Shown here one piece after another: positions 1 to 17,778 of a stretch of DNA of 64,000 nt (the first letter of the stretch is position 1; each line of letters opens with the position of its first letter). The translations under genes were made by a program, and so were the position numbers. A model generated the notes under the pieces. The model saw only the letters and a program-made list of their open reading frames with translations. It was not told where the DNA came from and did no database searches. This DNA is from Lentisphaerota bacterium (GTDB taxonomy: Bacteria > Verrucomicrobiota > Lentisphaeria > Victivallales > UBA1829), in assembly GCA_015061915.1 (NCBI GenBank), contig SUVR01000001.1, forward strand, positions 7,976-71,975, read 5' to 3'.

Positions 1-266
1 TAATTCTGCAAACTTTCCTGCCCGATGATGGTGATCGTCCGGACCGGAGAATCCGCTTGCCAGCGCAATCTGCCGTCTTTTTCATAGATCATGCTGCCCT
101 GGATCGTGACCTGCATTTCCAGATCGGCGATCGTACGGATCTGAGTGTAATCCGCCGTGGTGACTTTAACTTTTTTCAGGGGCGCAAGACGCTCTGCCAG
201 CGGTTGGGCGGCAGGCAGAGAAACGCACAACAGAAGAAAGAAAACAGTCAGGATCAGAGTTCGCAT
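1..266 (-). CDS. LolA-like lipoprotein-carrier family protein, N-terminal 88 codons (gene runs off the left edge)
   Basis: Not in the ORF track because there is no stop in the window. Own translation from ATG at 266..264: MRTLILTVFFLLLCVSLPAAQPLAERLAPLKKVKVTTADYTQIRTIADLEMQVTIQGSMIYEKDGRLRWQADSPVRTITIIGQESLQN. This is a signal peptide followed by a LolA-like strand pattern. The start overlaps the end of the upstream gene (254), so it belongs to the same operon. Confidence 0.45.
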   Translation of the reverse strand, partial: MRTLILTVFFLLLCVSLPAAQPLAERLAPLKKVKVTTADYTQIRTIADLEMQVTIQGSMIYEKDGRLRWQADSPVRTITIIGQESLQN

Positions 267-1699
267 ATGGAAAGTTCTCCCGTGGCACAGACTGTGTCAT
301 CGGACGCCCGTTTGACTTTGAAATCCAGCGTGTGATAGTTGTCGATCTGACCCGATTCCCGGATGCAGATATGCAGCAGATCTCCGCTTCGCACCGGTTC
401 GATGAAACGGATGCTGCGGACTCCGGTCAGCATCCCGCCCAGATTGTGATCATTCTTTTCAAAGCCGGTAATGACGGCACACGCTTGTGCCACGATCTCC
501 GGCAGCGCTTCGTTGTCCAGAATCCCCGCTCCATTCAGGAAACGGTTGTCCGGCTTGATCTCCGACTCCACCACGCTCCATTCCGCAAATTCGATCAAAC
601 GGTCCACCATAGTCATCGGCGGACGATGCGGGATCCATTGCTGTGCATCGCAGGGGACGGGCGGTTTCTGCCGCAGCAGTTCGCTGTTGTGCCAGCAGAG
701 CGGATCGGAGGCAAGGTAGTCGCCGGTGAGCTGATACGCCGCACCCCGGCAGCCGTAACAGCTTTCCGCTTTTTCGCAAGTTTTGCACGGACCTTTGATC
801 GTGGACCGGAAGTCCCGCAGTTTCTGCAGCACCACACTGGTCTGAACGATCGTTGCCAGATCCTGTTCGTACACATTCCCGATCTTTACGGTCAGTCCCA
901 CGCAGGGGATCACATTCCCGTTGGCACCAACGACTGCCGAGAACTGATGCCGCATACATTTTGAACCGACCAGCGGCGGCTGCGGTTCCCAGTCATAGCC
1001 CTGTTCCCGGTCGAAGGCGGCGATCTCCTCAAAGATCTCTTTCAACCGTGCCGGTTCCACTTCCAGCTGACGGTTTTCCAGCAATCTGCCTTGCGGTGTC
1101 AGGATTTCCAGATAAGGTTTGATCCCGTTCCGGCGCAGATATTTCCACAGGTCCACCACTTCTTTTTCGTTGGCGGAACAGATCACGGAGCTGGCAACCA
1201 GTGTATTGGAATCGAAGCCCGCCTCTTTCAGCAGCGCAATGGCGTTCAGGGCTTTATCCAATGCCCCTTTCACACCGGTCAGTTCCTCCTGGATCTGCGG
1301 GTTCAGGGTATTCAGTTTGACCACGATCCGGCAGCCGTATTCGTGGAAAAATTCTGCCCATTCCTTTGTCATCAGGGCGGCATTGGTAAAGATTTCCGCC
1401 ACCATGCCGAGACTGGTGATCAGTTTGATCTTTTCCTTCAGTTCCGGATAAAGCATGGGTTCACCGCCGAGGATCACGATCTTCCGCGCCCCCAACGCAT
1501 TCGCCTGACGGATCACTTCATCCGCCTTTGCCGAATCCAGAAAAACATTGGTCACACCACCTGCCGCATAGCAGTAAGGACACCGGTAGTTGCAGGTGCG
1601 GTTGAACTCAATTTCAATGGTGAGGAGTCCCCGTTTTGAGGCGGTTTCCCGGATCTCCTCCATCGTAAAATCAAATTTATGTTTGTCAAAAGGGATCAT
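254..1699 (-). CDS. radical SAM/SPASM enzyme fused to a C-terminal FabA/FabZ-like hotdog (dehydratase) domain
   Basis: CNYRCPYCY (CxxxCxxC) sits near the N-terminus. A Cys-rich SPASM-like region follows (GPCKTCEKAESCYGCRGAAY...PLCWHN). The last ~130 aa start IPHRPPMTMVDRL, resembling the LPHRYPFLLVD start of FabZ-type hotdog dehydratases. Confidence 0.75.
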   Translation of the reverse strand: MIPFDKHKFDFTMEEIRETASKRGLLTIEIEFNRTCNYRCPYCYAAGGVTNVFLDSAKADEVIRQANALGARKIVILGGEPMLYPELKEKIKLITSLGMVAEIFTNAALMTKEWAEFFHEYGCRIVVKLNTLNPQIQEELTGVKGALDKALNAIALLKEAGFDSNTLVASSVICSANEKEVVDLWKYLRRNGIKPYLEILTPQGRLLENRQLEVEPARLKEIFEEIAAFDREQGYDWEPQPPLVGSKCMRHQFSAVVGANGNVIPCVGLTVKIGNVYEQDLATIVQTSVVLQKLRDFRSTIKGPCKTCEKAESCYGCRGAAYQLTGDYLASDPLCWHNSELLRQKPPVPCDAQQWIPHRPPMTMVDRLIEFAEWSVVESEIKPDNRFLNGAGILDNEALPEIVAQACAVITGFEKNDHNLGGMLTGVRSIRFIEPVRSGDLLHICIRESGQIDNYHTLDFKVKRASDDTVCATGELSICEL

Positions 1700-1702
1700 G
1701 AT

Positions 1703-2995
1703 TCACTCCTTGCGCAGATCAAAGAACCGGACCGGCTTGCGTGAGACTCCGAAGACCCGTTTGCGGGCGTCTTCTTCACTGACCCCGATCACCGGCACAT
1801 GGATCCTGGTCCGATTGTAAAGCTGTTCCCGGATGTTCAGACTTTCCACCGTATGCCCGGCTTTGCACGCAACGAACATACTGATCTCATCGGAAAGGGC
1901 GCTGCCGCTGACTTCCATGTAATATTCCGACACCCCGTCAATGCCGTCCAGCACATTGAAAAAGGCGCCGGGGAAAAGAGTTGTCCCGTGAACTTTCAGC
2001 ATCTGGGCTTTGCGTCCGAGGATCGGACCGAGACGCAGCGTGTTTCTGCCGCAGGAACATTTCTCCGGAATGATGAAGCTGATGTCGCCCGTCCGGAAAC
2101 GGACCAGCGGCATCCCGGAGACCTGCAGGGGAGTCACGGTCACTTCACCGGTCACGCCATCCGGTACCCGGTTTCCTTTTTCGTCCAGGATCTCCACGAT
2201 CGCCAGATCGGCGGGCGGGTGTCCGCCGCAACGGGCGGAACATTCCGTAAAGCTGGTGACGATCTCACTGGAGGCGTAAGTGGAATGGACCGCTCCCGGC
2301 CAGAATTCTTCCAGTTTCTGTCCCAGCGGAGTCAACTTCATATCGCGGGTCCGGATCGGTTCGCCGATGCAGACGATCCGTTTGACACAGCTGCCGTCGA
2401 TCCCGTTGTCTTTCAGATATTGTCCCAGTTTCGCAATGAAACTCGGAACCCCTACGATCCCTTCCGGATGGACCATGGAAAGAATCGAGGCGTGGCTGGC
2501 AATGGTGTTCAGTCCGTTCCGGACAGCGGACGCACCCACTTTGACCACGCCCTGATAGTACGCAAGCCCCGCAATGAAACAGCGGTCAATGGTGCAGGTC
2601 AGCAATACTTTATCCGTTGGGACCATCCCCGCAGCCTTGAACCCGACTGCATCGTTGTAGCCCAGGCGGTCCAGGTCACCGGCGGAATACACGATCCGGC
2701 AGGGATTCCCGGTCGTTCCGCTGGTGAAACAGATATCGGCGATCTGTTCTTCCGGTACGGCAAAAAATTCTTCGTTGTGTTCCGCAAGATCACTTTTGCT
2801 GGTGGTGGGCAGCTCCTGCAGGGAGTCATAGTCAAACACCTTATCCGGATCGAATCCGGCAAACCGTTTCCGGTAGAACGGGGAATTTTCCCGGCAGTAA
2901 CGGATATGTTCCGCCAGCAGACAGTCCTGTTCTTTCCGGATCTCCGCTGCGGGGAGAAAAGAAATATCATCCTTCAGTTCAAATTTTGTTTTCAT
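1703..2995 (-). CDS. PaaK / coenzyme F390 synthetase-like adenylate-forming acyl-CoA (or acyl-ACP) ligase
   Basis: TSGTTGNP adenylation motif, 430 aa, PaaK-like length and layout. There is a 3-nt gap to the next gene downstream. Confidence 0.75.
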   Translation of the reverse strand: MKTKFELKDDISFLPAAEIRKEQDCLLAEHIRYCRENSPFYRKRFAGFDPDKVFDYDSLQELPTTSKSDLAEHNEEFFAVPEEQIADICFTSGTTGNPCRIVYSAGDLDRLGYNDAVGFKAAGMVPTDKVLLTCTIDRCFIAGLAYYQGVVKVGASAVRNGLNTIASHASILSMVHPEGIVGVPSFIAKLGQYLKDNGIDGSCVKRIVCIGEPIRTRDMKLTPLGQKLEEFWPGAVHSTYASSEIVTSFTECSARCGGHPPADLAIVEILDEKGNRVPDGVTGEVTVTPLQVSGMPLVRFRTGDISFIIPEKCSCGRNTLRLGPILGRKAQMLKVHGTTLFPGAFFNVLDGIDGVSEYYMEVSGSALSDEISMFVACKAGHTVESLNIREQLYNRTRIHVPVIGVSEEDARKRVFGVSRKPVRFFDLRKE

Positions 2996-3783
2996 GACTT
3001 TTTCTCTTTCAGGAGTTCATCCATTTTTGCAAGTTCTTCTTCCATTCTGCGGAAAACGGTCTTTTTCAGGACAAATGCCGTGGCGCATTGCCGTACTTCC
3101 TCTGCCGGGATCGGGGTAAGACGCCGGATCAGCAGATCCCGGAACATACGGAAACGGAATTTCCGGTCCGGCATATATTCGTTGCCGGCGATACAAAGCA
3201 TATACACCGGCAATCCCAGATCCAGTGCGATCTTGAAGATCCCGCTGTGAAAGGCATTCATTTTTTCCGATTCGGACCGGGTTCCTTCAGGAAATGCCAC
3301 GATCACATCATTTTCTGCGATCACTTCCGCAGCATTTTTCTCCAATGTCTCAAAGTTCCAACCTGTGATGTCCAGATAACCGCCCAGTTTCGCTCCCCAA
3401 CCGATCACCGGCGCACGCATGGGCCAGCCGTTGACCGTCTGGGCGCAACTTTCTCCCATAACTGCCACCAGAAAAGCATCCGTTGCCGCCCGGTGATTGA
3501 CTACCACGATCCCCGGCGCACGATCCTTCCCGCATCCGGAAAGATCTTCGTAACGGACCCGGAAGAAGGGCAGCCACATGATCCGCACCATTGTCCAGCC
3601 GAACAGAAACAGCAGAAACCGCATAAAATGGCGGCGTTTGCTGCGGGGGAAAAGCAGGCTGATTCCCACCGGCAGCAGCATGGCGGTCCAGTAGAACGCA
3701 GTCCAGAAGACCGTCAGAAAATAGATCGGAAAGCTGCGGCAGAAGGTGGAAAGCGCAGATGATTTTTGCGGTTCACTGCTCAC
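2992..3783 (-). CDS. lysophospholipid acyltransferase (LPLAT/PlsC family), membrane-anchored
   Basis: NHRAATD (HX4D) and FPEGTRS motifs with hydrophobic N-terminal helices. 4-nt overlaps with both neighbours. Confidence 0.8.
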   Translation of the reverse strand: MSSEPQKSSALSTFCRSFPIYFLTVFWTAFYWTAMLLPVGISLLFPRSKRRHFMRFLLFLFGWTMVRIMWLPFFRVRYEDLSGCGKDRAPGIVVVNHRAATDAFLVAVMGESCAQTVNGWPMRAPVIGWGAKLGGYLDITGWNFETLEKNAAEVIAENDVIVAFPEGTRSESEKMNAFHSGIFKIALDLGLPVYMLCIAGNEYMPDRKFRFRMFRDLLIRRLTPIPAEEVRQCATAFVLKKTVFRRMEEELAKMDELLKEKKS

Positions 3784-4052
3784 AGTTTTTCTGCCAGTTC
3801 CGGATGTTCTGCAATGAGTTTTTCAAAAAGCGTGTAAACATCTTCCAGCGTCTTGACTTCCCGGATCTCTTTGTTTTCACGCAGCATGATCCCGAACTTC
3901 TGCTGAAGTCCTACGATCATATCCACAATATCCAGACTGTCCAGTCCAAGATCATCCAGAATGTGCTTTTCCGGTGTCAGGTCTGCTTCTTCAAATTCAA
4001 AACGCTCAATAAAAATTGAGTTCACTGCTTTCACGATCGCATCACGGTTCAT
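3780..4052 (-). CDS. dedicated acyl carrier protein
   Basis: 90 aa with the LGLDSLDIV phosphopantetheine-attachment motif. Confidence 0.85.
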   Translation of the reverse strand: MNRDAIVKAVNSIFIERFEFEEADLTPEKHILDDLGLDSLDIVDMIVGLQQKFGIMLRENKEIREVKTLEDVYTLFEKLIAEHPELAEKL

Positions 4053-4087
4053 CGTTTTTTCTCCTCAAAATGTATGTTATTCTTGTT

Positions 4088-5311
4088 TCAGTCAACAGAT
4101 TTACAGACCAGACTTGCATTCACACCGCCGAAGGCAATGCTGTTTTTGATACACACCCGTACTTTGTGATCCATCAGCTGACGGGGCAGCAGGATCCCTG
4201 CACAGTCATCCACCTGTTCCAGATTCCGGGTTGGCAGTACGATCCCGTTCTGCATCATCCCGTGGACCGCCGCAAGTTCCAATGCGCCGGATGCACCCAG
4301 CGTGTGACCGAGATGCCCCTTCAGACTGGAGACCGGAACTTTGTCGCCCAGAACGGATCGGATCGCCGCCGCTTCCGCTGCGTCGCCTACTTTTGTGCCG
4401 GTGGCGTGGGCGCTGACATAGTCCACATCTTCTGCATTGATCCCCGCATCGGCGAGGGCGGTACGCATACAGTTGGCGATCTGTACTTCATCGGAGTGGC
4501 TCACGTGCCAGCCGGAACAGTTTGTGGCGTATCCGGCAAGCTCAAAAAGAATATTGGCACCGCGGGCTTTGGCGTGTTCGTATTCTTCCACCACCAGAAT
4601 CCCTGCTCCTTCCGCACAGACAAGTCCTTCCCGGTTGGCGTCAAAGGGGCGTGCCAGCTTTTCCGGTTCCGGCGTTTCCCGTTCTGCCAGCGCATAAAGC
4701 AGCTGGAAAGAGGATGCCACAAGACTGGTCGTTTCATCCGAACCGCCGGAAATGACCACATCTGCCTTGCCGAGCCGGATCAGCTCCTGTGCCGCACCCA
4801 GGGCTTGAAGACCGGAGGCACAGGCGGAGCAGGGCGCGAGCTGGATCCCGTTGATCCCGAACATATCCGCCACATTGAACGCGGAAGAATGGCTCATCAA
4901 CCGGAAAAAGTGGCAGGCGGAAAGATCATCCCGTCTTCCCTCGGCTTCAGCGGTACAGGCATCCGTCATACTGGAGGCGCTGCCCACGGTGCTGCCGATA
5001 ACGCAAGCAACTCTGCCCGTGGTGAAAAGTGCCGGATCAAGACCGCTGCTCAAAACTGCTTCCTGCGCCGCAAGTCCCGAAAACAATGCCGCATTGCCCA
5101 TTGTCCGGCGGACTTTCCGGTTGATCTTTTTGACCTGGACCGGATCCACACTCACCGGTGCATTGGCAATGTTTTTTCCGAAATGATCATACCATTCCGG
5201 CATGGCACGGACTCCGGAACGGTTCGCAAGGAGAGCCTCCCAAAGTTCTTTTACCGAGTTCCCCAGCGGGCTGATGACCCCGATCCCTGTTACAACTGCG
5301 CGTCTGTTCAT
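4088..5311 (-). CDS. beta-ketoacyl-ACP synthase (FabF/FabB-like KS), catalytic triad intact
   Basis: CSACASG active-site Cys, HATGT and GHTLGASG His motifs. Confidence 0.85.
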   Translation of the reverse strand: MNRRAVVTGIGVISPLGNSVKELWEALLANRSGVRAMPEWYDHFGKNIANAPVSVDPVQVKKINRKVRRTMGNAALFSGLAAQEAVLSSGLDPALFTTGRVACVIGSTVGSASSMTDACTAEAEGRRDDLSACHFFRLMSHSSAFNVADMFGINGIQLAPCSACASGLQALGAAQELIRLGKADVVISGGSDETTSLVASSFQLLYALAERETPEPEKLARPFDANREGLVCAEGAGILVVEEYEHAKARGANILFELAGYATNCSGWHVSHSDEVQIANCMRTALADAGINAEDVDYVSAHATGTKVGDAAEAAAIRSVLGDKVPVSSLKGHLGHTLGASGALELAAVHGMMQNGIVLPTRNLEQVDDCAGILLPRQLMDHKVRVCIKNSIAFGGVNASLVCKSVD

Positions 5312-5368
5312 AGATTTTCTGTCTGCAATTTTTGCGTATGTTATTTTATTTTTACTTTACAAAAACAA

Positions 5369-5396
5369 AATATACTGTAAAAACAGAAAAAATCAA
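5369..5396 (-). promoter_or_regulatory. candidate internal sigma70-like promoter inside the lipid cluster
   Basis: On the minus strand: TTGATT (5396..5391), 16-nt spacer, TATATT (5374..5369). It lies in the only AT-rich gap (5312..5424) of an otherwise tightly packed operon. Confidence 0.35.
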
Positions 5397-5424
5397 GGCG
5401 TGATAAGACATAGTATGGATTTTT

Positions 5425-6912
5425 TCAGAGAAAACGGCGGATCAAACCGGTGTAGATGTCTTCTCCCAGCACCTGACGGAAAACGGAAAAAGAGGCAAGC
5501 ATCGTTCCCATGACACCCGGTACCAGCGCACTTTGTCCCGCCGCAAAAAAGTTGGAGACCGGCAGCTGACCGCAGATCCGTGCCTGACCGCAGATACATC
5601 TTGCGCCGTAGGCACTTCCGGTGGGCGGATCGTAGTCCAGACAAGTCCACGGGCTGCCGCTGGCAACCACATGAAGTTTTCCCTTCAGCGCAGGGTGGAC
5701 CGCTTCGATCTCTGCCGCTGCTTCCTGCACCATCGCCGCCTTGAATGTCTGATACGCTTCATCGTTCTGCCGTTCCCGGTGAGTGGCAGAAAATCCCTGC
5801 GGCATCCCTTCAAAACGCATCGTCCGGAATGCAGAGACCGTATGACGCAGGACGCCGGTCCGATCCGTTTCCCGGTTGAACAGGATCCCGGTGCTGTGAG
5901 CGCGGGTGCCGTCGGTCAGAATGTGATCGATATCGTTGCCGGAAAAATAGGAGACCAGCCCTTCCGGTACCGCTTCGTCGGCGGTAAAATAGGAACAGAA
6001 AAAGCTGCAGGATTCTTTCAGACGCCGGATCCGCCGTTCGTGGGACGGCGTTTTTGCTTCGTCCGGCAGAACATTCTGGATCGCAAGGGGATGCGTTGTG
6101 AAGAAAATATGTTCCGCATCCAGTGTTGTGCCGTCGGAAAGGCGGACTTCATGGCAAGCACCGTCGGAATCGGGAGCGGTGAATTTCAGCAGTTCCGTAC
6201 CGGTCCGGATGTCGATCCCGTACCTTTCCGCTTCCCGTTTGAAGGCGCGGATCATGGCATCACCGCCATCGTCCGGACGGGCGAGATCGGTGTGCAGGGC
6301 GTACCCCACCCGTGCGTGAAAACTCATTGGTGCTTCCGAAAGGGGCGTGCCGTGACACATGGCAAAAGATCCGGTACAGGCCGTTGCTGCCGGAGAAAGT
6401 CCCAGAGACTGACAGATCTCTCCCGCAGTCGTGAGATCATATCGGGAAAAATCGGGTGTCAATGGCGAAAGATCCCGCAGATCGTGCATGGGAGTCGTAT
6501 CCCAGATCTCCTGTTCGATCCGGAAAAATTCCCGGATCTTTTCCGCTTCATCCGGAAACGCATTGCAGCAGGCTTCCGCCGCTCCGGTATGACCGCAATC
6601 CGCCGGGAGCAGGATCTCTTTCCCGCTTTCGGCAAGTACGATCCGGTTGGAAATCGGGGTGCTGCCGACTGCATCGGACAGCCCCAGCACCTGCATCATC
6701 TGTTCCATTATTCCGTTCCGGCTGAATCCGCCTGAAAAATGATAGCCCGTATCGAAGGGGATCCCGTTCCGGTAAAAACGCCGCAGATAGCCGCCGATCT
6801 CCGGCTGACTTTCAATCAGCGTCACCGGTCTGCCGGACCGGGCAAGAAGCAGGGCAAGGGTCAAGCCGCCGGCTCCGGAGCCGCAGACAATATTGGTCCG
6901 TTCCCGCCGCAT
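5425..6912 (-). CDS. FAD/NAD(P)-dependent oxidoreductase, phytoene desaturase (CrtI)-like family
   Basis: N-terminal dinucleotide-binding fold IVCGSGAGGLTLALLLARSG. 495 aa, CrtI-like length. Confidence 0.7.
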   Translation of the reverse strand: MRRERTNIVCGSGAGGLTLALLLARSGRPVTLIESQPEIGGYLRRFYRNGIPFDTGYHFSGGFSRNGIMEQMMQVLGLSDAVGSTPISNRIVLAESGKEILLPADCGHTGAAEACCNAFPDEAEKIREFFRIEQEIWDTTPMHDLRDLSPLTPDFSRYDLTTAGEICQSLGLSPAATACTGSFAMCHGTPLSEAPMSFHARVGYALHTDLARPDDGGDAMIRAFKREAERYGIDIRTGTELLKFTAPDSDGACHEVRLSDGTTLDAEHIFFTTHPLAIQNVLPDEAKTPSHERRIRRLKESCSFFCSYFTADEAVPEGLVSYFSGNDIDHILTDGTRAHSTGILFNRETDRTGVLRHTVSAFRTMRFEGMPQGFSATHRERQNDEAYQTFKAAMVQEAAAEIEAVHPALKGKLHVVASGSPWTCLDYDPPTGSAYGARCICGQARICGQLPVSNFFAAGQSALVPGVMGTMLASFSVFRQVLGEDIYTGLIRRFL

Positions 6913-6916
6913 CGGA

Positions 6917-7654
6917 TCAGATCACCAGACCGCCGTTGACGGCGATCACCTGACCGTGGATATACGTGCTGTCCGGTCCGCAGAGAAAACTCACGGTTCC
7001 GGCGATTTCCGCCACTTTCCCGGTCCGGTGCAGGGGGATCAGGGGCAGGATCTGATCTTTCGGAAGATCTTTGGTCATATCGGTTTCGATCACGCCGGGA
7101 GCAACCACGTTCACAAGGACGCCTTTTCTGCCTACTTCACGGGCAAGTGCCTTTGCTGCACCGATCAACGCCGCTTTCGTGGCGGAATAGTTCACCTGAC
7201 CTGCCTGTCCGGTCTGACCGGAGGCGGAACTGATAATGACCACCCGCCCGCGACGCTTTGCCAGCATCCCGAAGACCAGCGGCTGGACCGTATTGTAAAA
7301 TCCGTTCAGATTGGTATCCAGCACGCTTTCCCATTCGTTGTCATCCATAAACACGAAAAGGTTGTCTTTGGCGATCCCGGAGTTGTAAACGACCACATCC
7401 GGCGGATTTTCTGTGGGGAACGTTTCAGCCAGAACGGTCCGTGCCGCCGCCCGGTCGCAGACATCCAGTTCCAGAATATTGCAACACCCGCCTGCAGCGG
7501 TGATCGCTTCGACCAGCGCAGCAGAATCTGCACCCTGTTTCCGGCAGGTCGCAGTGACTTCAAATCCATCTTTTGCAAGGCGTTCCGAAATTGCCTTTCC
7601 GATTCCCCGGCAACCGCCGATCACGAGAGCTTTTCTGCTGTTTTCTGCTGTCAT
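6917..7654 (-). CDS. 3-oxoacyl-ACP reductase (FabG-family SDR)
   Basis: 245 aa short-chain dehydrogenase. Contains GGCRGIG cofactor loop, NYSATKAAL (YxxxK) and FabG-like C-terminus IHGQVIAVNGGL. Confidence 0.85.
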   Translation of the reverse strand: MTAENSRKALVIGGCRGIGKAISERLAKDGFEVTATCRKQGADSAALVEAITAAGGCCNILELDVCDRAAARTVLAETFPTENPPDVVVYNSGIAKDNLFVFMDDNEWESVLDTNLNGFYNTVQPLVFGMLAKRRGRVVIISSASGQTGQAGQVNYSATKAALIGAAKALAREVGRKGVLVNVVAPGVIETDMTKDLPKDQILPLIPLHRTGKVAEIAGTVSFLCGPDSTYIHGQVIAVNGGLVI

Positions 7655-7676
7655 TTCAGTTTATCCTTCTATTTGA

Positions 7677-8933
7677 TCACTCTGTATATTTTTTGAAGAT
7701 GAGGGCGGCATTGTGTCCACCGAAACCGAGACTGTTGCTGAGGATGAATTCCGGATCTGCCTGACGCGCAATGTTCGGAGTGACATCCAGATCACATTCC
7801 GGGTCCGGTGTGGTGTAATTGATCGTGGGCGGTACAAGCCCGGTCTCAGCCGTTTTTACGCAGGCGACTGCCGCCAGTGCGCCCGCCGCTCCCAAGGCGT
7901 GTCCGATCATACTTTTGACTGCACTGACTGCGATTTTATCCGCATGAGCGCCGAAGACTGCCCGGATGGCTTTCGTTTCGCATTTGTCATTGGCTATTGT
8001 GCCGGTTCCGTGAGCGGAGATACAGGTAATATCCTCCGGTCTGCATCCTGCGTGAGCGATTGCCATTTGCATCGCCCGGATGTCGCCGGTACCTTCGGGA
8101 TCGGGGCTGGTGATGTGCCAGGCGTCGCAGGTCGCACCGTATCCGATCAGTTCTGCCAGAATGGTTGCACCCCGTTGTTTTGCGTGTTCCAGCTCTTCCA
8201 GTACCAGCAGGGCGGCACCTTCTGCGATCACGAAGCCGTCCCGGTTCAGATCAAAGGGTTTACAGGCTTTTTCCGGTTCTCCGTTCTGAAGGCTGAGTGC
8301 CGTCAATGCAGCGAAACCGCCGGTCAGGAGACGGGTCACACAAGTTTCTGAACCGCCGGCCAACATCAGATCGGCATCGCCCCGTTTGATCTGCCAGAAG
8401 GCTTCCCCGATGGCGTGTGAGGAGGAAGCACAGGCGGAGGATACGCTGAAATTCGGACCTTTCAGCCCGAAACGGATCGCCACGGATCCGGAAGCGGTAT
8501 TGGTGATATAGGACGGCACAAAAAAGGCGGAAAGCCCGCTTCCCCGTGCCAGTGCCGCTGCGTTTTTGTCATAGACTTCCACCCCGCCAGCACCGGATGA
8601 GATCAGAGCACCTGCACGGAATGGGTCCGGCAGAGTGATTTTTGCCGTTTCTGCATCCAGCAGTTTTGCTTGCGTCAGGGCTTCGTGTGCGGCAGCAATG
8701 GCAAAGCGTGTGAACCGGGCGGTGCGCCGTTCTTCTTTCACGGTCATGCCCGGCACAACCAGATCCCGCACTTCTCCGGCAATGGTCACCGGCAGTTTCG
8801 GTTCCGGTTCAAAAAGGGAGATCTGCCGGATCCCGCTTCTGCCGTGGGACAGAGTCTCCCACAGTTCCTGCACGGAATTTCCGCCGCAGCTTACTGCGCC
8901 CATACCGGTAATGACGATCCGCCGTTCTTTCAT
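7677..8933 (-). CDS. beta-ketoacyl-ACP synthase (FabF-like KS), catalytic triad intact
   Basis: SSACASSSHAIGEA, HGTGT and GHALGAAG motifs. I place the start at MKERRIVITGMG (ATG 8933), which forms an ATGA overlap with the stop of the upstream hydrolase gene. The ORF-track start 9008 is an extension. Confidence 0.85.
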   Translation of the reverse strand: MKERRIVITGMGAVSCGGNSVQELWETLSHGRSGIRQISLFEPEPKLPVTIAGEVRDLVVPGMTVKEERRTARFTRFAIAAAHEALTQAKLLDAETAKITLPDPFRAGALISSGAGGVEVYDKNAAALARGSGLSAFFVPSYITNTASGSVAIRFGLKGPNFSVSSACASSSHAIGEAFWQIKRGDADLMLAGGSETCVTRLLTGGFAALTALSLQNGEPEKACKPFDLNRDGFVIAEGAALLVLEELEHAKQRGATILAELIGYGATCDAWHITSPDPEGTGDIRAMQMAIAHAGCRPEDITCISAHGTGTIANDKCETKAIRAVFGAHADKIAVSAVKSMIGHALGAAGALAAVACVKTAETGLVPPTINYTTPDPECDLDVTPNIARQADPEFILSNSLGFGGHNAALIFKKYTE

Positions 8934-9889
8934 ATTTCTTCTTCTCTCTTTCCATCGTGGTTGAGGATCTTCTGTTCCTGCAGAAATTTCAGCAATTCTC
9001 CGGACCACGCCGCCGTTTCGGGATAAAGCTGTTTTTGTTTTTCATTCAGGAGTCCCATTCCGTGGGGACCGTGCTGAAAGATCAATGTCTTATGGGGGAT
9101 ATTATGTTTTTTCAATGCTGCATCCATCTGTTTTCCGTTTTCCGGATCAACGCATTGGTCTTCCAGTGTCAGCCACAGAAAAGTGGGTGGGAAACCGGGT
9201 GCGACCTGTTTTTCGAGGGAAAGAGCATCTATTTGTTCCGGGGTCGGATTGCTTCCCAGCAGATTGCTCCGGCTGGTCTTGTGGGCAGCTGTATCCATGG
9301 TAACGACCGGATAGCACATGATCACAAAGTCCGGTTTGGCGGAAAACCGTTTGACCGGATCTGCGGCATCTTTTTCACCTTCCGTATTGCCCAGTGCGGT
9401 CAGCGCGGCAAGGTGTCCTCCTGCCGATGAACCCATCGTGCCGACTTTCGCAGGATCAATGTTCAACGCCTTGGCATGAATACGGATCAGCCGCACCGTA
9501 TGTTGTGCCGCCTGCTGCATGGCGGGGTGTCGCCGGAAATGACCGAAGATCGAGCCCAGCGGATATTTGACTACGATCCCTGCAACGCCGTTCGCCGCAA
9601 GAAATTTTGCATATTCCGTCCCTTCCACATGGAAATCCAGCACCCCGTACGCTCCGCCGGGGAATATGATTGCCGCCGGTACGGGCTTGGTTGTTTTTGC
9701 CGGCAAAAAGATCTGAAGCGCACAGAACCAGTCGTCATCATACAAGTGATATGTTTTTTTACCGGGTTGATGCTTTGCTGCGTTTGCGATTTCGAATGTC
9801 GGTTCATCGGGCAGGACAAAGAGAAAACAGCCGGAAAGCAGCAGGAGTGCAGCTGCACAGAAAAAAAGACTGACCCATTTCCGACTCAT
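8930..9889 (-). CDS. alpha/beta-hydrolase (esterase/lipase-like) lipoprotein
   Basis: Signal peptide with lipobox LLLLSGC. GSSAGGH nucleophile elbow (GxSxG). Confidence 0.7.
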   Translation of the reverse strand: MSRKWVSLFFCAAALLLLSGCFLFVLPDEPTFEIANAAKHQPGKKTYHLYDDDWFCALQIFLPAKTTKPVPAAIIFPGGAYGVLDFHVEGTEYAKFLAANGVAGIVVKYPLGSIFGHFRRHPAMQQAAQHTVRLIRIHAKALNIDPAKVGTMGSSAGGHLAALTALGNTEGEKDAADPVKRFSAKPDFVIMCYPVVTMDTAAHKTSRSNLLGSNPTPEQIDALSLEKQVAPGFPPTFLWLTLEDQCVDPENGKQMDAALKKHNIPHKTLIFQHGPHGMGLLNEKQKQLYPETAAWSGELLKFLQEQKILNHDGKREEEI

Positions 9890-9915
9890 ATTTGTCCGTA
9901 TATTTTGTGTTCGTA

Positions 9916-10413
9916 TTACAGTTCTGTTACGCCGTCGTCGATCAGATACGGCATCTCCTCGTGGACCGTCGTATTGCCGGAGATCACTTTTGTATCCAGT
10001 TTGATATATTTGATCGTGCCGTCTGCCAGTACGGTCCCTTCCATATCCATAAGCTGGGATTCCACTACCACAAAACGGCTGGTCTCCCGCACAACCACAC
10101 CCTTTGCGATCAGGTCAGTTGCGTAGGGGACCGGCTTGCGGTAGTTTGTGGTCAGGTTGATGGTGACACCGAAATCTTTTTCTTCGCCGCCGTGATATGC
10201 CCAGAGTCCCCGCAGTCCCAGTTCATCCAGCATGGCAGTGATCAGCCCGCCGTGAACACGCCCCGGATAACTCTGGTGATTCGGGTGATACTGAAATTTC
10301 GTCATTACGCTGCCGTCTTCCATGTTGTAAAAAGCGGCACGCACACCGAATTCATTGTCAAGTCCGCAAATAATGCACATTTTACTGTTGCGCTGTCTGC
10401 TCAAAACTTTCAT
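9916..10413 (-). CDS. PaaI/4HBT-family hotdog thioesterase
   Basis: HGGLITAMLDE motif. Start set at MKVLSRQ (ATG 10413) with AAGGAG 8 nt upstream. This is the first gene of the minus-strand cluster. Confidence 0.75.
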   Translation of the reverse strand: MKVLSRQRNSKMCIICGLDNEFGVRAAFYNMEDGSVMTKFQYHPNHQSYPGRVHGGLITAMLDELGLRGLWAYHGGEEKDFGVTINLTTNYRKPVPYATDLIAKGVVVRETSRFVVVESQLMDMEGTVLADGTIKYIKLDTKVISGNTTVHEEMPYLIDDGVTEL

Positions 10414-10552
10414 TTGCTGCTCCTTGTTCCGGTAAAGATTATTTTTCTGTAATTTATAGCAAAAAAAAGAAAAGTCAAGGCTTGAACCGGGGCGGATCAC
10501 GGTTTAAAGTAATGCGTGAACACAAAAGGAAATTACCCGAAGGAGATTTTTT

Positions 10553-11776
10553 ATGGATAATACCCGCCTCAAAGCCTATGCCGAATTGATCGTGAAGAAG
10601 GGGCTTAACCCCGATCCCGGTCAGGAAGTGATCATTCTCGCCGCTCTGGATCAGCCGGAATTTGTGCGGCTGGTCGCTGAAGAATGTTACCGTGCCGGTG
10701 CCGCAAAAGTTACTGTGGATTGGCAGGATATGCCCCTGAACAAGTTGGCGCAGCTCTATCAGACTGAGGAAAAACTCGGATCCATCGAGGATTGGGAGAT
10801 CGAAAAACTCAAGTGGCGCGTGGAAAAACTGCCCGCTTTTCTCTGGCTGGATTCCGATGATCCGGACGGCATGGACGGCATTGATCAGGGCAAGCGTGCC
10901 CGCGCTCAGATGGCTCGTTTCCCGAAGATCAAACCTTACCGCGATGCCATGGAAAACCGCTTTCAGTGGTGTATCGCCGGAGTCCCCGGAAAGGAATGGG
11001 CGTGCAAAGTCTTCCCCGGTATTTCTGCGGAGGAGGCTGTGGAAAAACTGTGGGAAGCGATCCTGACCACCGCCCGCGCGGAAGGGGATCCCATCGCCAA
11101 CTGGGAGGAACACAACCGGGTCATCCACGAGCGCTGCAGCGCCCTGAACGACTATAAGTTTATCGCACTGGAGTATCAGAGCAGCAACGGCACGGATTTC
11201 CGTGTCGGACTGATGGAGCAGGGCATCTTTGCCGGTGGCGCGGAAAAAGATCTTTCCGGACGCATCTTTAACCCGAACATCCCCTCCGAAGAAATCTTCA
11301 CCAGCCCGAAACGGGGCGAGGCGGAAGGGGTGCTTGTCTCTACGAAACCCCTTTCCTGGCAGGGCAGCCTGATCGAAAACTTTTCCATCCGGTTCGAGAA
11401 GGGGAAAGCCGTGGAGGTCAAAGCGGAGAAAGGGCAGGAAGCGTTGGAACGGATGATCGCCATGGATGAGGGCGCGGCGTATCTGGGCGAATGTGCCCTC
11501 ATCGGCTGGGATTCCCCCATCAACCGGACCGGGATCCTCTTTTACAGCACCCTTTACGACGAAAACGCCAGCTGTCATGTGGCGCTGGGACGCGGCTTTG
11601 AAAACTGCGTTGCCGATTACGACAAGTACAGCCAGGAACAGCTCCGCGCCATGGGCGTCAACGACAGCATGATCCATGTGGACTTTATGATCGGCTGTCG
11701 GGATCTCAATATCACCGGGATCACAGCCGACGGACGGAAGATTCCCGTCTTCCGGTTCGGCGAATGGTGTTTCTGA
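10553..11776 (+). CDS. M29-family aminopeptidase (AmpS/PepS-like)
   Basis: 407 aa. The N-terminus MDNTRLKAYAELIVKKGLNPDPGQEVII is typical of aminopeptidase T/S family proteins. Confidence 0.75.
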   Translation: MDNTRLKAYAELIVKKGLNPDPGQEVIILAALDQPEFVRLVAEECYRAGAAKVTVDWQDMPLNKLAQLYQTEEKLGSIEDWEIEKLKWRVEKLPAFLWLDSDDPDGMDGIDQGKRARAQMARFPKIKPYRDAMENRFQWCIAGVPGKEWACKVFPGISAEEAVEKLWEAILTTARAEGDPIANWEEHNRVIHERCSALNDYKFIALEYQSSNGTDFRVGLMEQGIFAGGAEKDLSGRIFNPNIPSEEIFTSPKRGEAEGVLVSTKPLSWQGSLIENFSIRFEKGKAVEVKAEKGQEALERMIAMDEGAAYLGECALIGWDSPINRTGILFYSTLYDENASCHVALGRGFENCVADYDKYSQEQLRAMGVNDSMIHVDFMIGCRDLNITGITADGRKIPVFRFGEWCF

Positions 11777-12823
11777 TCAGGAAACAGTCCAGCGGCAGTA
11801 ATTCAGTTCTGCGCTCATTCCGTTGTGTTCATACCAGAGCGTAAAGAATGTGCCGTCCGGCATTTCGACGGTGGAAGGATATCCGAGATCTCTGTTCAGC
11901 CCACGGTCATGGATGATCCATTCTTCTCCCCAGGTTTTGCCGCCGTCTGCTGAAAACATTGCCCGGACACCGAATGGTTCTTTGCGCCAGCCGTATGTCA
12001 TGAGCAGATTCCCGTTTCGGGTACGCTGCAGGAATGAAGGAAAACCGTCGCAGATGTAATGCGGTTCACTCCATGTCGCACCGCCATCCATTGATTCCGT
12101 CTGCCATGTCCGTGTAATACATTCCTCTTTTCTGCAGGCGCGGATCTGGACAATGAGATCCCCGTTTTCCGTTTCCGCCGCATGAAGTTCGTGACAATTC
12201 GCATTTTCGTGTTCCGGCGGCGGTGGGATCTGCCCGATGATCTGCCAGGTTTTGCCGTTATCATCGGAAATACTGGCTGCCATTTCCGGTTTCATCATTG
12301 CCGAATCGACCGGATAATAGGAGTGTACTTTTCCGGGCATGAAAAGACGACCGCTTTTCAACAGGACCGGTCCGTGGGGATTGTTGACGGCGGTCCGGTA
12401 TTTTTCGCTCCAGGTCAACCCGTTATCCGTGGAGCGACGCATCCACAGACCATGTTCATCCCGCAATGTTTCGAGTGAAATACTGCGTGCAACCACATCC
12501 CATGGATGGGGTTTTCCCCATTTTTCCAGAATGGTGGCAACACTGGTGAAGTAGTTGACCAGAATTGAGCCGTCTGCTGCAATACAGATTCCCGCATCCC
12601 GGTCATCCAGTGGCCCCTGACTCAGAAATTCCGGAGCGGTCCAGGTTTCTCCACCATCCTTGGAACGATAGAAAAATACGCGTCCGTATGGACACATGTG
12701 TCCTTCCCGGTTTCCGGAGCAGACGGCGAGCAGTTCGCCGCTTTCCGTAATTGCCACGGTTGGCCAGCCGTGATAGGTTGGATTCAATGTGATTTTTCCG
12801 GTTTTGAGCTTTTTTACATTCAT
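11777..12823 (-). CDS. BNR/Asp-box repeat protein, sialidase-like (GH33-like), no signal peptide seen
   Basis: Five SxDxGxTW Asp-boxes: SKDGGETW, STDNGLTW, SDDNGKTW, SMDGGATW, SADGGKTW. Confidence 0.7.
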   Translation of the reverse strand: MNVKKLKTGKITLNPTYHGWPTVAITESGELLAVCSGNREGHMCPYGRVFFYRSKDGGETWTAPEFLSQGPLDDRDAGICIAADGSILVNYFTSVATILEKWGKPHPWDVVARSISLETLRDEHGLWMRRSTDNGLTWSEKYRTAVNNPHGPVLLKSGRLFMPGKVHSYYPVDSAMMKPEMAASISDDNGKTWQIIGQIPPPPEHENANCHELHAAETENGDLIVQIRACRKEECITRTWQTESMDGGATWSEPHYICDGFPSFLQRTRNGNLLMTYGWRKEPFGVRAMFSADGGKTWGEEWIIHDRGLNRDLGYPSTVEMPDGTFFTLWYEHNGMSAELNYCRWTVS

Positions 12824-12941
12824 TTTTTTATCTCCTGTTTGAAAGATGAATGGTTGGATGCTATTGTAACTTTAGGTCGCCGGAATGTTGTTTTCAATCA
12901 TACGGAAAAGTTATTGATCATACAAACAGGAACAAAAATAT

Positions 12942-13790
12942 ATGAATCTCTCGGAAGACAGAGATAAGATTGTTTCAGTATTGGAAAAAATCCTTTCAGA
13001 CCGTCCGCTGAACGCTTTCCGTTTTGCGGAACACTATATCGGGAACGGGGATGTGTCCGATGCCGTTATCCTGCCCATTCACCGTCTGACCTGTGTATTG
13101 GATGGGCAATTTTGTTTGAAAGTCGGCAGCGGCAGGCAGATCACGCAGGAAGTTTATTCTGCCGGAACGACATTGATGATGCGTCCGTTCTGTACGACGG
13201 CTTTCGCACCGGGGAGTTGCTGCGAAGCGTTCGGCCTTGTCTGCCGTCCCGGATTTTTACGGATCTTTTACTGCGAAGCAGAGGATGGCAGGCATTATTT
13301 TTATCACTTGAAGGATACGCTCCGCACCAGTACACACCATGCCCTTTCCGCCCTGTTCCATTTGCAAGATGACCGGGACTCCCGAAGTACGATGTCCGAC
13401 TTGCTGTATCTGGTTTTTACGCTCTTGAAAGAAGACCTGAAACGATCCCGGATCTGCGATTGCGGAAAATCCTTCCAGTTGTGGTGCCGGATCTCCGAGC
13501 GGTTGGAAGAATATTATGATGCCGATCCGACACGCAGCGAACTTGCCGCAGAATTTGAGGTGACAGAAACGTATATTTCCAGACTGTTCCGGCGGTATGC
13601 CGGTACGACATTCAAAGAATATCTGCGTCTGATACGGTTGAAAAAATCAGAACGTCTGCTGAATGAAACGAATCTGACAGTCAGTGAGATCGCATGGCAG
13701 TGCGGATTTCATTCCACCACTTATTTCATCCGCAGTTTCCGGTCGGTCCATCATGTTTCGCCCGGTCATTACCGGCGGCTGAAAAAATAA
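12942..13790 (+). CDS. AraC-family transcriptional regulator
   Basis: C-terminal double-HTH region (TETYISRLFRRYAGTTFKEYLRLIRLKKSERLL...IAWQCGFHSTTYFIRSFR). Confidence 0.85.
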   Translation: MNLSEDRDKIVSVLEKILSDRPLNAFRFAEHYIGNGDVSDAVILPIHRLTCVLDGQFCLKVGSGRQITQEVYSAGTTLMMRPFCTTAFAPGSCCEAFGLVCRPGFLRIFYCEAEDGRHYFYHLKDTLRTSTHHALSALFHLQDDRDSRSTMSDLLYLVFTLLKEDLKRSRICDCGKSFQLWCRISERLEEYYDADPTRSELAAEFEVTETYISRLFRRYAGTTFKEYLRLIRLKKSERLLNETNLTVSEIAWQCGFHSTTYFIRSFRSVHHVSPGHYRRLKK

Positions 13791-13856
13791 AAAACACACT
13801 TGAAAAAATAACAGGTGCGTACTATTTTAGAAGAGAAACTCAACAGGAGAGTAAAT

Positions 13857-14714
13857 ATGAAAACAAAAAAAATGATCGTGGGCGTCCTTTCCGGCTTCGG
13901 TCCGGAACTGGAAAATCCCTTCACAAAGATCGTGGGTCACGGCGTTGATGTGACCCAGGTGTGCAACTGGAAGGTCGATCTGTGGACCAAAGAAAACGCA
14001 AAGAAGATCAAGAAGTATGCGAAGGACAGCAAGATCCGGATCAACTCGTTCTGGTCCGGCTATACCGGTCCTGCCGTCTGGAACTTCATTGAAGGTCCCA
14101 CCACCCTCGGTCTGGTTCCCCCCGAATACCGGAAACAGCGCATCGCCGACCTGAAGAAGGGCGCAGACTTTGCCGAAATGATCGGCGCTCCCGCTATCGT
14201 GACCCATTGCGGTTTCATCCCGGAATATCCCGCCGACCCCCTGTATCAGGGCACGCTGGATGCCATCGGCGAAGTGGCGGAATACTGTAAGAAAAAAGGT
14301 CTCGGCTTCTGGTTTGAAACCGGGCAGGAAACGCCCACCACCCTGCTGCGTGTCATCGAAGATCTGGCACTGGATAACCTGGGGATCAACTTCGATACCG
14401 CAAATGTGATCCTTTACGGAAAAGCAAACCCGCTGGACGCTCTGGATGTCTTCGGCAAGTACGTGCGCTGTCTCCACGCCAAGGACGGTATGTACCCCAC
14501 CAACGGACGCAACCTCGGTCACGAAGTGCCCGTCGGCAAGGGCAAGAGCCAGTACAGCAAACTGATTCCGAAACTGAAAGAGATCGGCTACGAAGGCGAC
14601 CTGATCATCGAACGGGAAATCGGCGGCGAACAGCAGACCAAAGACATCATGAAGACCATCGTCTATCTGCGGAAACTGGTCGATAAAGCCGAAGCCAAGT
14701 ACGCGGCGAAATAA
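13857..14714 (+). CDS. sugar phosphate isomerase/epimerase (xylose isomerase-like TIM barrel)
   Basis: Family-typical layout. Start moved to ATG 13857 (MKTKKMIVGV) behind AGGAG. Confidence 0.7.
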   Translation: MKTKKMIVGVLSGFGPELENPFTKIVGHGVDVTQVCNWKVDLWTKENAKKIKKYAKDSKIRINSFWSGYTGPAVWNFIEGPTTLGLVPPEYRKQRIADLKKGADFAEMIGAPAIVTHCGFIPEYPADPLYQGTLDAIGEVAEYCKKKGLGFWFETGQETPTTLLRVIEDLALDNLGINFDTANVILYGKANPLDALDVFGKYVRCLHAKDGMYPTNGRNLGHEVPVGKGKSQYSKLIPKLKEIGYEGDLIIEREIGGEQQTKDIMKTIVYLRKLVDKAEAKYAAK

Positions 14715-14728
14715 GAGAAAGACATCAG

Positions 14729-14932: not shown

Positions 14933-14946
14933 AGAATCCCCTTCTC

Positions 14947-16296: not shown

Positions 16297-16324
16297 AGTT
16301 TTTTTCTCCTTGTGGTTTCATTAT

Positions 16325-17614: not shown

Positions 17615-17778
17615 AGGAATATTCCTTTCGTGCTGTATTATATACGCCGGATCGTTGAGAATCAATAGCAAAATTATGTGAAACATCAAAAAAATGTGCG
17701 GAATATGGAAAAAAGTTGAAAAATCCCGTTGAAAACTGCGGAAAAAATCTTACATTATGAGAAAATGAAAGGATTTTT

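Follow-up and report, generated by a model that had tools for sequence, protein, structure and literature searches.

An aryl-polyene-like operon with a radical SAM/SPASM–hotdog fusion gene in a ruminant-gut Lentisphaeria bacterium

The 64,000-nucleotide stretch of DNA analysed here (the window; assembly GCA_015061915.1, contig SUVR01000001.1, positions 7,976 to 71,975) comes from a ruminant-gut Lentisphaeria bacterium and holds at its left end one operon's promoter-proximal half, the whole operon numbering at least 19 genes. Judged from homology, motifs and gene order, this operon probably encodes a type II polyketide synthase/fatty acid synthase (PKS/FAS) pathway of the aryl polyene (APE) type, APE/flexirubin-like, which would make an unsaturated acyl chain that is anchored to a lipid and sent to the outer membrane. 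The signature gene of this cluster variant (254-1699, minus strand) encodes a 481-aa protein in which a radical S-adenosylmethionine (SAM)/SPASM enzyme carries a C-terminal ApeP-like hotdog domain. The cluster belongs to a widespread anaerobe subfamily of APE-like clusters and is not an oddity of one genome.

The operon and its fusion protein

Gene calls were based on an open reading frame (ORF) listing together with Pfam and NCBIfam profile scans of the window proteins. Ten complete genes lie in one direction on the minus strand at 254-10413, and the first 88 codons of an eleventh occupy 1-266; the domains that an earlier reading of this DNA without database searches (the sequence-only reading) had assigned to these genes were recovered. 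In the direction of transcription, they encode a PaaI-type thioesterase, a lipoprotein alpha/beta hydrolase, ketosynthase (KS) 1, a FabG-type ketoreductase (KR), a flavoprotein of the CrtI superfamily, KS2, an acyl carrier protein (ACP), an LPLAT acyltransferase, a PaaK/F390-type adenylating enzyme (the ligase), the fusion protein and a LolA-like carrier. Catalytic motifs are intact in all of the cluster genes of the window. Neighbouring genes overlap by ATGA at two junctions (LPLAT/ligase and hydrolase/KS1), by GTGA at one (ACP/LPLAT) and by 13 nucleotides (nt) between the fusion and LolA genes, and the remaining junctions are gaps of 3-35 nt, with the exception of 113 nt between the flavoprotein and KS2 genes. 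The GC content of the cluster, 0.54-0.57, is ordinary against 0.48-0.57 across the window, and the 'atypical composition' previously ascribed to the cluster can therefore refer to gene content alone.

The fusion protein matched Pfam Radical_SAM with 85 bits and SPASM with 38.7 bits (cutoff 21.5). Its N-terminal 340 residues carry a CxxxCxxC motif (C36/C40/C43) and seven SPASM cysteines (C248, C266, C305, C308, C314, C317 and C335), all of which were invariant in alignments of 22 and 48 sequences, and the cysteine sets for all three cluster-binding sites are present in the SPASM fold. The AlphaFold (AF2) model of the protein (pLDDT 93.8, pTM 0.91) has SkfB, SuiB, CteB, PqqE and anSME as its nearest solved folds (Foldseek E about 1e-13 to 1e-12); among NCBIfam models, GeoRSP, AhbD and NirJ2 scored highest, all at 125 bits or less compared with equivalog cutoffs of at least 400. 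The protein thus resembles known SPASM enzymes (anSME, PqqE, SkfB, SuiB and CteB, and by sequence AhbD/NirJ) in its CxxxCxxC and seven-cysteine SPASM motifs, but differs from them in having no peptide or tetrapyrrole context and in being fused to a FAS/PKS hotdog domain within a lipid cluster. The radical SAM domain is 39% identical over 338 aa to Kuste3343 of Kuenenia stuttgartiensis (E 5e-91), and the Kuste3343 C-terminal motif CYGCRG..Q.TG..LASD..CW was invariant in the same two alignments. Together with the 24% identity of the flavoprotein to kuste3336 and kuste3607, this match substantiates the link to unusual lipids of anaerobes that the sequence-only reading had drawn. Among the relatives of the SPASM domain (P0452, P0474, P0492, P0523 and P0414), some have lengths of 650-1135 aa and carry the homologous part at their C-terminal end, and some fused relatives have extra C-terminal sequence (720 aa); other fusion architectures thus exist in this radical SAM family.

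The hotdog domain aligned with ApeP of Escherichia coli at 22% identity (BLASTP, E 0.004), and H358, E401 and Q405 were invariant in 43 fused homologues, E401..Q405 forming the FabZ-type Glu motif. The Glu motif (E..AQ) occurs in the ApeP-like domains alone, and the fusion hotdog has no GHF His motif; conversely, the His motif (GHF) occurs in the ApeI-like proteins alone, and the separate ApeI-like protein of the operon has no Glu. ApeI and ApeP of E. coli show the same division of His and Glu, and heterocomplexes among Ape proteins have been reported (PMC8253772). The complementary pattern fits a single composite active site in a putative ApeI/ApeP-type heterodimer. If the hotdog domain is half of a dehydratase, we infer that the radical SAM enzyme would be tethered to the dehydratase of the elongation cycle.

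Window positions 1-11000 are 100% identical to positions 700-11699 of contig L001 (ENA ERZ27248306), and the fusion protein sequence was found unchanged on 23 public contigs; the closest genome is a Lentisphaeria metagenome-assembled genome (MAG) from water-deer cecum, at 97% identity. Beyond the window, L001 encodes the complete LolA-like protein (203 aa) and then a 977-aa MMPL/HpnN-like RND protein, the C-terminal part of which opens with a lipobox and is a separate gene of about 220 aa in some relatives; the MMPL protein of one relative (L012) gave a faint match to DUF3261. An ApeI-like dehydratase (128 aa; 31.5 bits to Pfam ApeI-like, cutoff 28.5), a YbgC-type thioesterase (144 aa), KS3 (354 aa, full Cys-His-His triad), a 201-aa protein and a 671-aa GT2-DUF2062-LpxL fusion protein follow. 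The predicted MMPL exporter and the further dehydratase and KS genes lie to the left, where the sequence-only reading had envisaged them. On a contig of the 97%-identical MAG (L005), the sequence extends about 1.2 kb beyond this point, with a gene for a second ACP and the beginning of a fourth KS gene, which brings the operon to at least 19 genes, more than the eleven previously counted.

The 201-aa gene overlaps the KS3 gene by 4 nt and is translationally coupled to it, and 3 of 13 members of the 201-aa family matched the KS N-terminal domain PF00109 (best E 1.9e-8), making it plausible that the 201-aa protein may be a chain-length-factor-like partner of KS3. With the leftward continuation read, two of the three differences from APE clusters that had been put forward are no longer supported. 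Both KS of the window do have an intact triad, as stated earlier, but the claim that they have no chain-length-factor partner was not supported, as a 201-aa KS-like family follows KS3 and a fourth KS lies further on. Likewise, no ammonia-lyase or methyltransferase was seen among the 19 genes, but the supposed lack of a glycosyltransferase was overturned by the GT2-DUF2062-LpxL protein just outside the window, which is 36% identical to ApeJ. No domain of the enoyl reductase type was found in the 17 scanned cluster proteins.

An exhaustive protein search gave 222 clusters (50% identity) at E ≤1e-30, and about one-third of the best 150 carry the hotdog fusion; a genome-contig search with the fusion gave three loci, two from the MAG of the same species and one on a Desulfobulbaceae fragment. 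Fusion homologues at 45-99% identity belong to Lentisphaeria and Victivallaceae, one homologue cluster being that of the cultured species Victivallis vadensis, whose fusion WP_116883894.1 shares 53% identity with that of the window, and a Nitrospirota branch stands at 42-44% identity. Desulfobulbales abound in standalone forms, about 345 aa long and 47-48% identical, and such a form there adjoins an LPLAT and a B12-binding radical SAM enzyme in a FAS-like cluster (L014). In the region 5525-19808 of that 6.36-Mb Desulfobulbales-like genome, the standalone Kuste3343-type enzyme stands behind thioesterase, ACP, KS and LPLAT genes together with the B12 radical SAM gene, and a second block nearby encodes an ApeI-like protein, an ACP, another radical SAM-like protein, two KS, a thioesterase and a PS-DH protein; this layout looks like the Desulfotalea-type arrangement of Rattray et al. 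(2009).

Synteny was assessed by tblastn of 17 proteins against 80 metagenome loci and further loci. The order FabG, flavoprotein, KS2, ACP, LPLAT, ligase, fusion, LolA, MMPL, ApeI-like protein, thioesterase, KS3, 201-aa protein and glycosyltransferase was kept at identities as low as 42%, and it occurs in Lentisphaerota, including the cultured V. vadensis, and in Nitrospirota; KS2 is the first cluster gene in some relatives. Counting loci with enough flanking sequence, which are not phylogenetically independent of one another, the ligase adjoins the fusion in 57 of 59, and LPLAT (51/52), ACP (46/50), KS2 (40/45), LolA (54/60), MMPL (37/37), the ApeI-like protein (32/37), the thioesterase (35/37), KS3 (31/33) and the 201-aa protein (26/32) are present in most, the flavoprotein in 24 of 37 and FabG in 19 of 33. 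The co-conservation that the sequence-only reading had proposed to check was thus found, the radical SAM and desaturase-like genes travelling with the cluster across phyla. Together with the fusion of the radical SAM enzyme to a predicted dehydratase domain, this co-conservation argues that the radical SAM enzyme and the flavoprotein may act on the ACP-bound chain.

Two tandem B12-binding radical SAM genes precede the glycosyltransferase gene in 23 of 37 long loci and in none of the window's lineage. The pair lies between the 201-aa gene and the glycosyltransferase gene at 17722-20319 of L010 and also in L030, L040, L071 and L092, and Victivallis-like human-gut loci are among those that carry it. 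The presence of the pair in most relatives means that the family often has three radical SAM enzymes per cluster, as in the Kuenenia cluster.

Relation to known clusters

The cluster proteins were compared by BLASTP with those of the APE cluster of E. coli CFT073, the functions of the matched Ape proteins being taken from PMC8253772; identities were 22-40%. KS2 and KS1 matched ApeR (39% and 36% identity), KS3 matched ApeR/ApeO (about 33%), FabG matched ApeQ (40%), the ACP ApeF (37%), the LPLAT ApeD (25%) and, as stated above, the fusion hotdog ApeP, in line with the APE/flexirubin-like signature that had been noted from the window genes. Among the proteins encoded wholly or mostly to the left of the window, LolA matched ApeL (25%), MMPL ApeM (23%), the small dehydratase ApeI (28%), the thioesterase ApeK (32%) and the glycosyltransferase fusion ApeJ. 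The operon thus resembles the APE clusters of E. coli CFT073 and Xenorhabdus doucetiae (ApeA-ApeS) in its several KS, KR, dedicated ACP and lack of an enoyl reductase, in its LPLAT (ApeD), GT2/acyltransferase (ApeJ) and YbgC-type thioesterase (ApeK), in its LolA-like (ApeL), MMPL (ApeM) and DUF3261-like (ApeN) parts and in being a long one-direction operon with overlapping genes. The putative split dehydratase would be of the ApeI/ApeP type by motif pattern, the Pfam ApeP-like score of the hotdog domain being below the cutoff. The APE attachment and export set is present, and all of it but the LPLAT lies to the left of the window, on L001.

The operon differs from APE clusters in having a radical SAM/SPASM enzyme joined to the ApeP-like subunit, a CrtI-superfamily flavoprotein among its genes, a ligase of the FlxY/PaaK type and not of the ApeH type, and GT2, DUF2062 and LpxL in one protein. 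No homologue of ApeA, ApeB (methyltransferase) or ApeG was detected in the operon, the host belongs to a strict-anaerobe lineage, and the E. coli APE cluster is without the radical SAM domain, the flavoprotein, the PaaI thioesterase and the hydrolase. In PMC8253772, APE clusters are described as the bacterial biosynthetic gene cluster family with the widest distribution, and antiSMASH has called an APE cluster in a Victivallis-like genome (PMC8863827).

The flexirubin (flx) clusters of Chitinophaga pinensis and Flavobacterium johnsoniae supply the closest curated models for the ligase (FlxY), the KR (FlxB) and the LolA-like carrier (LolA2_flexi), and share with the operon a FAS-like polyene logic as well as an acyltransferase, LolA, glycosyltransferase and exporter (PMC3992019). 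FlxY is a characterised 4-coumarate/cinnamate/arylpropionate-CoA ligase, and the flexirubin paper mentions neither a radical SAM enzyme nor a phytoene-desaturase-like enzyme (PMC3992019). However, all three models scored under their equivalog cutoffs (417 vs 520, 260 vs 340 and 70 vs 125 bits), and neither a FlxA tyrosine ammonia-lyase (TAL) nor DarA/DarB was found among the 19 genes or in the conserved flanks of 37 related loci. Membership of the flexirubin family was rejected on these scores and on the lack of TAL and DarAB.

Rattray et al. (2009) described FAS-like clusters in K. stuttgartiensis, Desulfotalea psychrophila, Geobacter and Pelobacter with SAM-radical enzymes, phytoene-dehydrogenase-like proteins, a phenylacetyl-CoA ligase, a glycosyltransferase and a lipid-transport membrane protein (PMC2649909). 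For comparison, Kuenenia sequences were taken from S6 Table of Javidpour et al. (PMC4790861), who reported that neither kuste3336 nor kuste3607 showed phytoene desaturase activity and that fatty-acid desaturase activity was not demonstrated. The operon shares with kuste3335-3352 and the D. psychrophila cluster the Kuste3343-type SPASM enzyme, a phytoene-dehydrogenase-like flavoprotein, a phenylacetyl-CoA-ligase-like enzyme and a glycosyltransferase, and likewise FabG, FabZ-like, FabF and non-canonical FabF proteins and an MMPL-like membrane protein. In Kuenenia and Desulfotalea, however, the SPASM enzyme, of about 345 aa, stands by itself and is paired with a B12-binding radical SAM enzyme, as in L014, whereas it is fused to a predicted dehydratase subunit in the operon; those clusters also contain SAM methylases and B12 radical SAM genes, neither of which is present in the operon or, for the latter, in the window's lineage.

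According to current work, kuste3603-3608 (Cluster I), with its B12-dependent radical SAM enzyme, is unique to ladderane producers. Cluster I resembles the operon in having its own ACP, amxACP, the FabZ-like dehydratase amxFabZ and a KS whose KS partner is inactive (amxFabF2/amxFabFmut), and in encoding both a radical SAM enzyme and a phytoene-dehydrogenase-like flavoprotein; it differs in that this enzyme is cobalamin-dependent and not of the SPASM type, and in that it has no ligase, LPLAT, LolA, MMPL and glycosyltransferase set. Membership of Cluster I was rejected, as no B12-binding radical SAM enzyme was found among the 19 genes, the host belongs to Lentisphaeria and not to anammox bacteria, and the flavoprotein is only 24% identical to kuste3607. 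Since kuste3603-3608 is the ladderane-specific cluster, the operon is akin to the other type of Kuenenia/Desulfotalea cluster, which is not specific. Viewed from the operon, this non-specific type appears to be APE-like. The findings also speak against a restriction of Kuste3343-type enzymes to the synthesis of ladderanes.

No description of a radical SAM–ApeP fusion, or of a characterised product for this cluster type, was found in the open-access literature. The ingredients of the cluster were noted in 2009, and such loci have already been flagged by antiSMASH. A Kuste3343-type radical SAM enzyme is here physically tied to the predicted dehydratase of an APE-like pathway. What function the radical SAM and 'phytoene desaturase' genes serve in the FAS-like clusters that anaerobes carry, a question since 2009, becomes testable beyond the slow-growing anammox bacteria, and the cultured gut bacterium V. 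vadensis, which carries the arrangement, gives experimental access to it.

Proposed pathway and alternatives

We propose the following scenario for an APE-type pathway, all steps of which we infer from the genes, motifs, homology to Ape proteins and Kuste3343, and cross-phylum synteny. The FlxY/PaaK-type ligase would activate a starter acid (an aryl-C3 or aryl acid is likeliest), and the ApeR-like KS2 would prime the chain on the dedicated ACP. KS3 and the truncated KS-like 201-aa protein may elongate the chain as an ApeO/ApeC-like pair, the FabG-type KR would reduce each beta-keto group, and the heterodimeric dehydratase would remove water, the ApeI-like protein giving the catalytic His and the ApeP-like domain of the fusion the Glu. 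Since no enoyl reductase is encoded, a conjugated polyene would be expected. The radical SAM/SPASM domain, held at the dehydratase by the fusion, may abstract hydrogen from an ACP-bound intermediate, with its two auxiliary clusters as electron sink for a two-electron oxidation. SPASM enzymes typically couple hydrogen abstraction to two-electron oxidation, and desaturation, C-C bond formation and decarboxylation are therefore plausible chemistries, among which the data do not discriminate. The CrtI-superfamily flavoprotein may adjust the double-bond pattern; the YbgC-type thioesterase, the LPLAT and the GT2-DUF2062-LpxL protein would attach the chain to a glycolipid anchor, and MMPL(-DUF3261) and LolA would carry the product to the outer membrane. 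Arylpropionate is common in herbivore guts, and it may be speculated that the FlxY-like ligase loads saturated arylpropionate and that one redox enzyme then conjugates the ring with the polyene.

Several observations weigh against an APE-type pathway. No starter-supplying enzyme (TAL, XanB2/UbiC) was seen in the cluster, and the ligase had no BLASTP match to E. coli ApeH at E 0.1 and is not its orthologue; an aryl head group is therefore conjectural. The hotdog domain scored 16.2 bits against Pfam ApeP-like, below the cutoff of 27, and hhalign comparisons of the 201-aa family with ApeC and with KS2 were both negative. The scores of KS1 and FabG exceed the equivalog cutoffs for housekeeping FabF and FabG, and to our knowledge no pigment has been reported in Lentisphaeria. 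The radical SAM enzyme and the CrtI-superfamily flavoprotein were absent from the characterised APE and flexirubin clusters examined, and the chain chemistry may therefore differ substantially from that of a plain polyene.

There are two other readings of the chain chemistry. An oxygen-independent pathway to polyunsaturated fatty acids or hydrocarbons, as Rattray et al. (2009) proposed for the Kuenenia/Desulfotalea clusters, would have the FAS-like enzymes build a saturated or monounsaturated chain into which the flavoprotein and the radical SAM enzyme insert double bonds, with the ligase acting late, in lipid attachment, and not in the loading of an aromatic starter. The similarity to Kuste3343 and to kuste3336 and kuste3607 agrees with such a pathway, as do the enzyme toolbox described in K. 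stuttgartiensis and in D. psychrophila, which makes polyunsaturated hydrocarbons (PMC2649909), and the lack of a starter-supplying enzyme. Without an enoyl reductase, however, saturated chains are beyond the reach of the cluster by itself; APE logic is favoured by the full set of ApeD-, J-, K-, L-, M- and N-like proteins for attachment and export and by the putative split dehydratase, the ligase is closest to an aryl-acid ligase, and phytoene desaturase activity was not observed for kuste3336 and kuste3607, nor fatty-acid desaturase activity demonstrated (PMC4790861), so that we regard this pathway as unlikely. Less likely again is a cyclised (ladderane-like or other ring-bearing) or cross-linked acyl lipid made through C-C bond formation in the ACP-bound chain by the radical SAM/SPASM enzyme. 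The nearest solved folds PqqE, SuiB, SkfB and CteB are SPASM enzymes that form C-C and C-S cross-links, Kuste3343 is a ladderane-candidate enzyme, and the dehydratase fusion would position a radical enzyme on chain-elongation intermediates; but SPASM enzymes also perform simple dehydrogenations and decarboxylations, the Kuste3343-type enzyme is widespread in non-anammox Desulfobulbales, Nitrospirota and Lentisphaerota, and the B12-dependent radical SAM enzyme of the ladderane-specific kuste3603-3608 has no counterpart in the operon.

The equivalog scores of KS1 (511 bits, FabF cutoff 494) and FabG (280 bits, one FabG cutoff 273) could mean that part of the operon belongs to housekeeping type II fatty acid synthesis merely adjoining an export locus. 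This is very improbable: FabD, FabH, FabI, FabZ, FabA and Acc genes are missing from the operon, just 2 of 28 related loci carry KS1, and the operon has its own ACP, ligase, LPLAT, radical SAM enzyme and LolA/MMPL pair in an order fixed across phyla. Identity as a housekeeping FAS II operon was rejected, only FabF-like and FabG-like genes being present and the gene order being different.

It is conceivable, though we lean against it, that the radical SAM/SPASM domain works directly on ACP-tethered elongation intermediates, alone or with the flavoprotein, and that anaerobes of at least two phyla thereby have an oxygen-independent route to a new extra-desaturated, cyclised or cross-linked outer-membrane lipid. 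If true, this would be the first case of a type II FAS/PKS elongation module with an integral radical SAM enzyme; the role of the Kuste3343-type enzymes of anammox and sulfate-reducing bacteria would also be revealed, and the oxygen-independent lipid route would extend to the cultured human-gut species V. vadensis.

Individual genes and other features of the window

The first gene of the operon encodes the PaaI-type hotdog (4HBT) thioesterase (9916-10413, minus strand, as are all cluster genes; 165 aa; 4HBT 42 bits; TIGR00369 44 bits, cutoff 36.6), the likely start being the ATG at 10413, although a 194-aa GTG ORF extends to 10500. It sits 26 nt upstream of the gene for the lipoprotein alpha/beta hydrolase (8930-9889), a BD-FAE, acetylesterase-like protein (BD-FAE 75 bits) with a signal peptide and the lipobox LLSGC. 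KS1 follows (7677-8933; 418 aa, FabF-like by TIGR03150). The thioesterase had no tblastn match in L017 or L018 and was not seen in any of the relatives examined, and the hydrolase was present in 2 of 26 loci; the thioesterase, the hydrolase and KS1 are lineage-specific additions, the pathway role of the hydrolase being uncertain.

The KR gene (6917-7654) encodes an ApeQ-like 3-ketoacyl-ACP reductase (adh_short_C2 166 bits; the FabG model passed is NF004200; FlxB_rubin 260 bits). The flavoprotein (5425-6912; 495 aa) has the FAD-binding motif GxGxxG and belongs to the amine-oxidase/phytoene-desaturase superfamily (Pfam Amino_oxidase 52 bits, cutoff 19.8). The sequence-only reading had called it CrtI-like, which holds at the superfamily level but not at the family level: crtI_fam TIGR02734 gave 44 bits against a cutoff of 238, with residues 8-56 alone matched, and CrtI (phytoene desaturase) family membership was rejected. 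A profile search against PDB gave PDS 5mog at E 1.3e-6 and CrtI 4dgk at E 0.07, and the matches to kuste3336 and kuste3607 were better than those to any solved structure; by sequence, the flavoprotein appears to belong to a divergent family common to these two proteins.

KS2 (4088-5311) is closest to the APE initiating KS ApeR (275 bits), and both KS1 and KS2 keep Cys163/His303/Lys335/His340 (E. coli FabF numbering). Public gene calls on L001 start the flavoprotein (4992-6275) 68 codons late, giving 427 aa without GxGxxG or any Pfam match, and start KS2 (6497-7612) 36 codons late, giving 371 aa; the longer ORFs of both match domain models from residue one. The dedicated ACP (3780-4052; 90 aa; PP-binding 32 bits) has its serine (DSL) motif in LGLDSLD, and the ApeD-like LPLAT (2992-3783; 263 aa, GTG start; Pfam Acyltransferase 53 bits) has HX4D (NHRAATD) and FPEGTRS motifs. 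The adenylating enzyme (1703-2995) resembles FlxY, the 4-coumarate-CoA ligase of the flexirubin pathway, most closely (FlxY_rubin 417 bits, full-length match; PaaK models 132-158 bits; PDB PaaK 4r1l, E 2.8e-33) and is the presumed activator of the starter acid. The ApeL-like periplasmic carrier gene (1-266) starts at the ATG at 266 with MRTLILTVFF, the same as the L001 gene at 11434-12045, the full product of which gave 39 bits to Pfam LolA and 70 bits to NCBIfam LolA2_flexi.

The right-hand limit of the cluster is at about 10.5 kb, where a divergent M29 aminopeptidase gene and then glycan-utilisation genes follow. A sigma-70-like promoter match on the minus strand at 10451..10478 (TTGACT-16-TAAATT, 9/12 matches, by consensus only) lies upstream of the first gene of the operon, within the divergent region that this gene shares with the M29 peptidase gene. 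Two overlapping sigma-70-like matches on the minus strand at 5354..5396 (9/12 matches each, by consensus scan only) fall in the 113-nt gap upstream of KS2, the sole long intergenic gap, and weakly suggest a possible internal promoter. The promoter/terminator scan gave weak consensus matches alone, terminators being not enriched over shuffles, and an Rfam scan of window positions 1-12000 gave zero matches.

The right flank (10553-17689) encodes the M29 aminopeptidase, a BNR/sialidase-like protein, two AraC regulators, a GH4 enzyme and a melibiase-like enzyme, a glycan-foraging neighbourhood that fits the lifestyle of gut Lentisphaeria and is unrelated to the lipid operon. The sole tRNA gene of the window is tRNA-Cys (GCA) at 51248-51323 on the plus strand. 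A Gln/Glu-tRNA synthetase gene at 53529-55217 (minus strand) is shadowed by a 1236-aa plus-strand ORF without a Pfam match, which is probably not a gene. The dnaA gene (36153-37598, minus strand; Bac_DnaA 195 bits) stands at the minimum of the cumulative GC skew (about 32000-39500 of the window), and the gap at 37.6-39.5 kb probably contains the chromosomal origin of replication or lies close to it. A large serine recombinase gene (41880-43691, minus strand; Resolvase, Recombinase and Zn_ribbon_recom) lies in the lowest-GC stretch of the window (0.476, 42-44 kb), a region that may be an integrated mobile element near the origin region.

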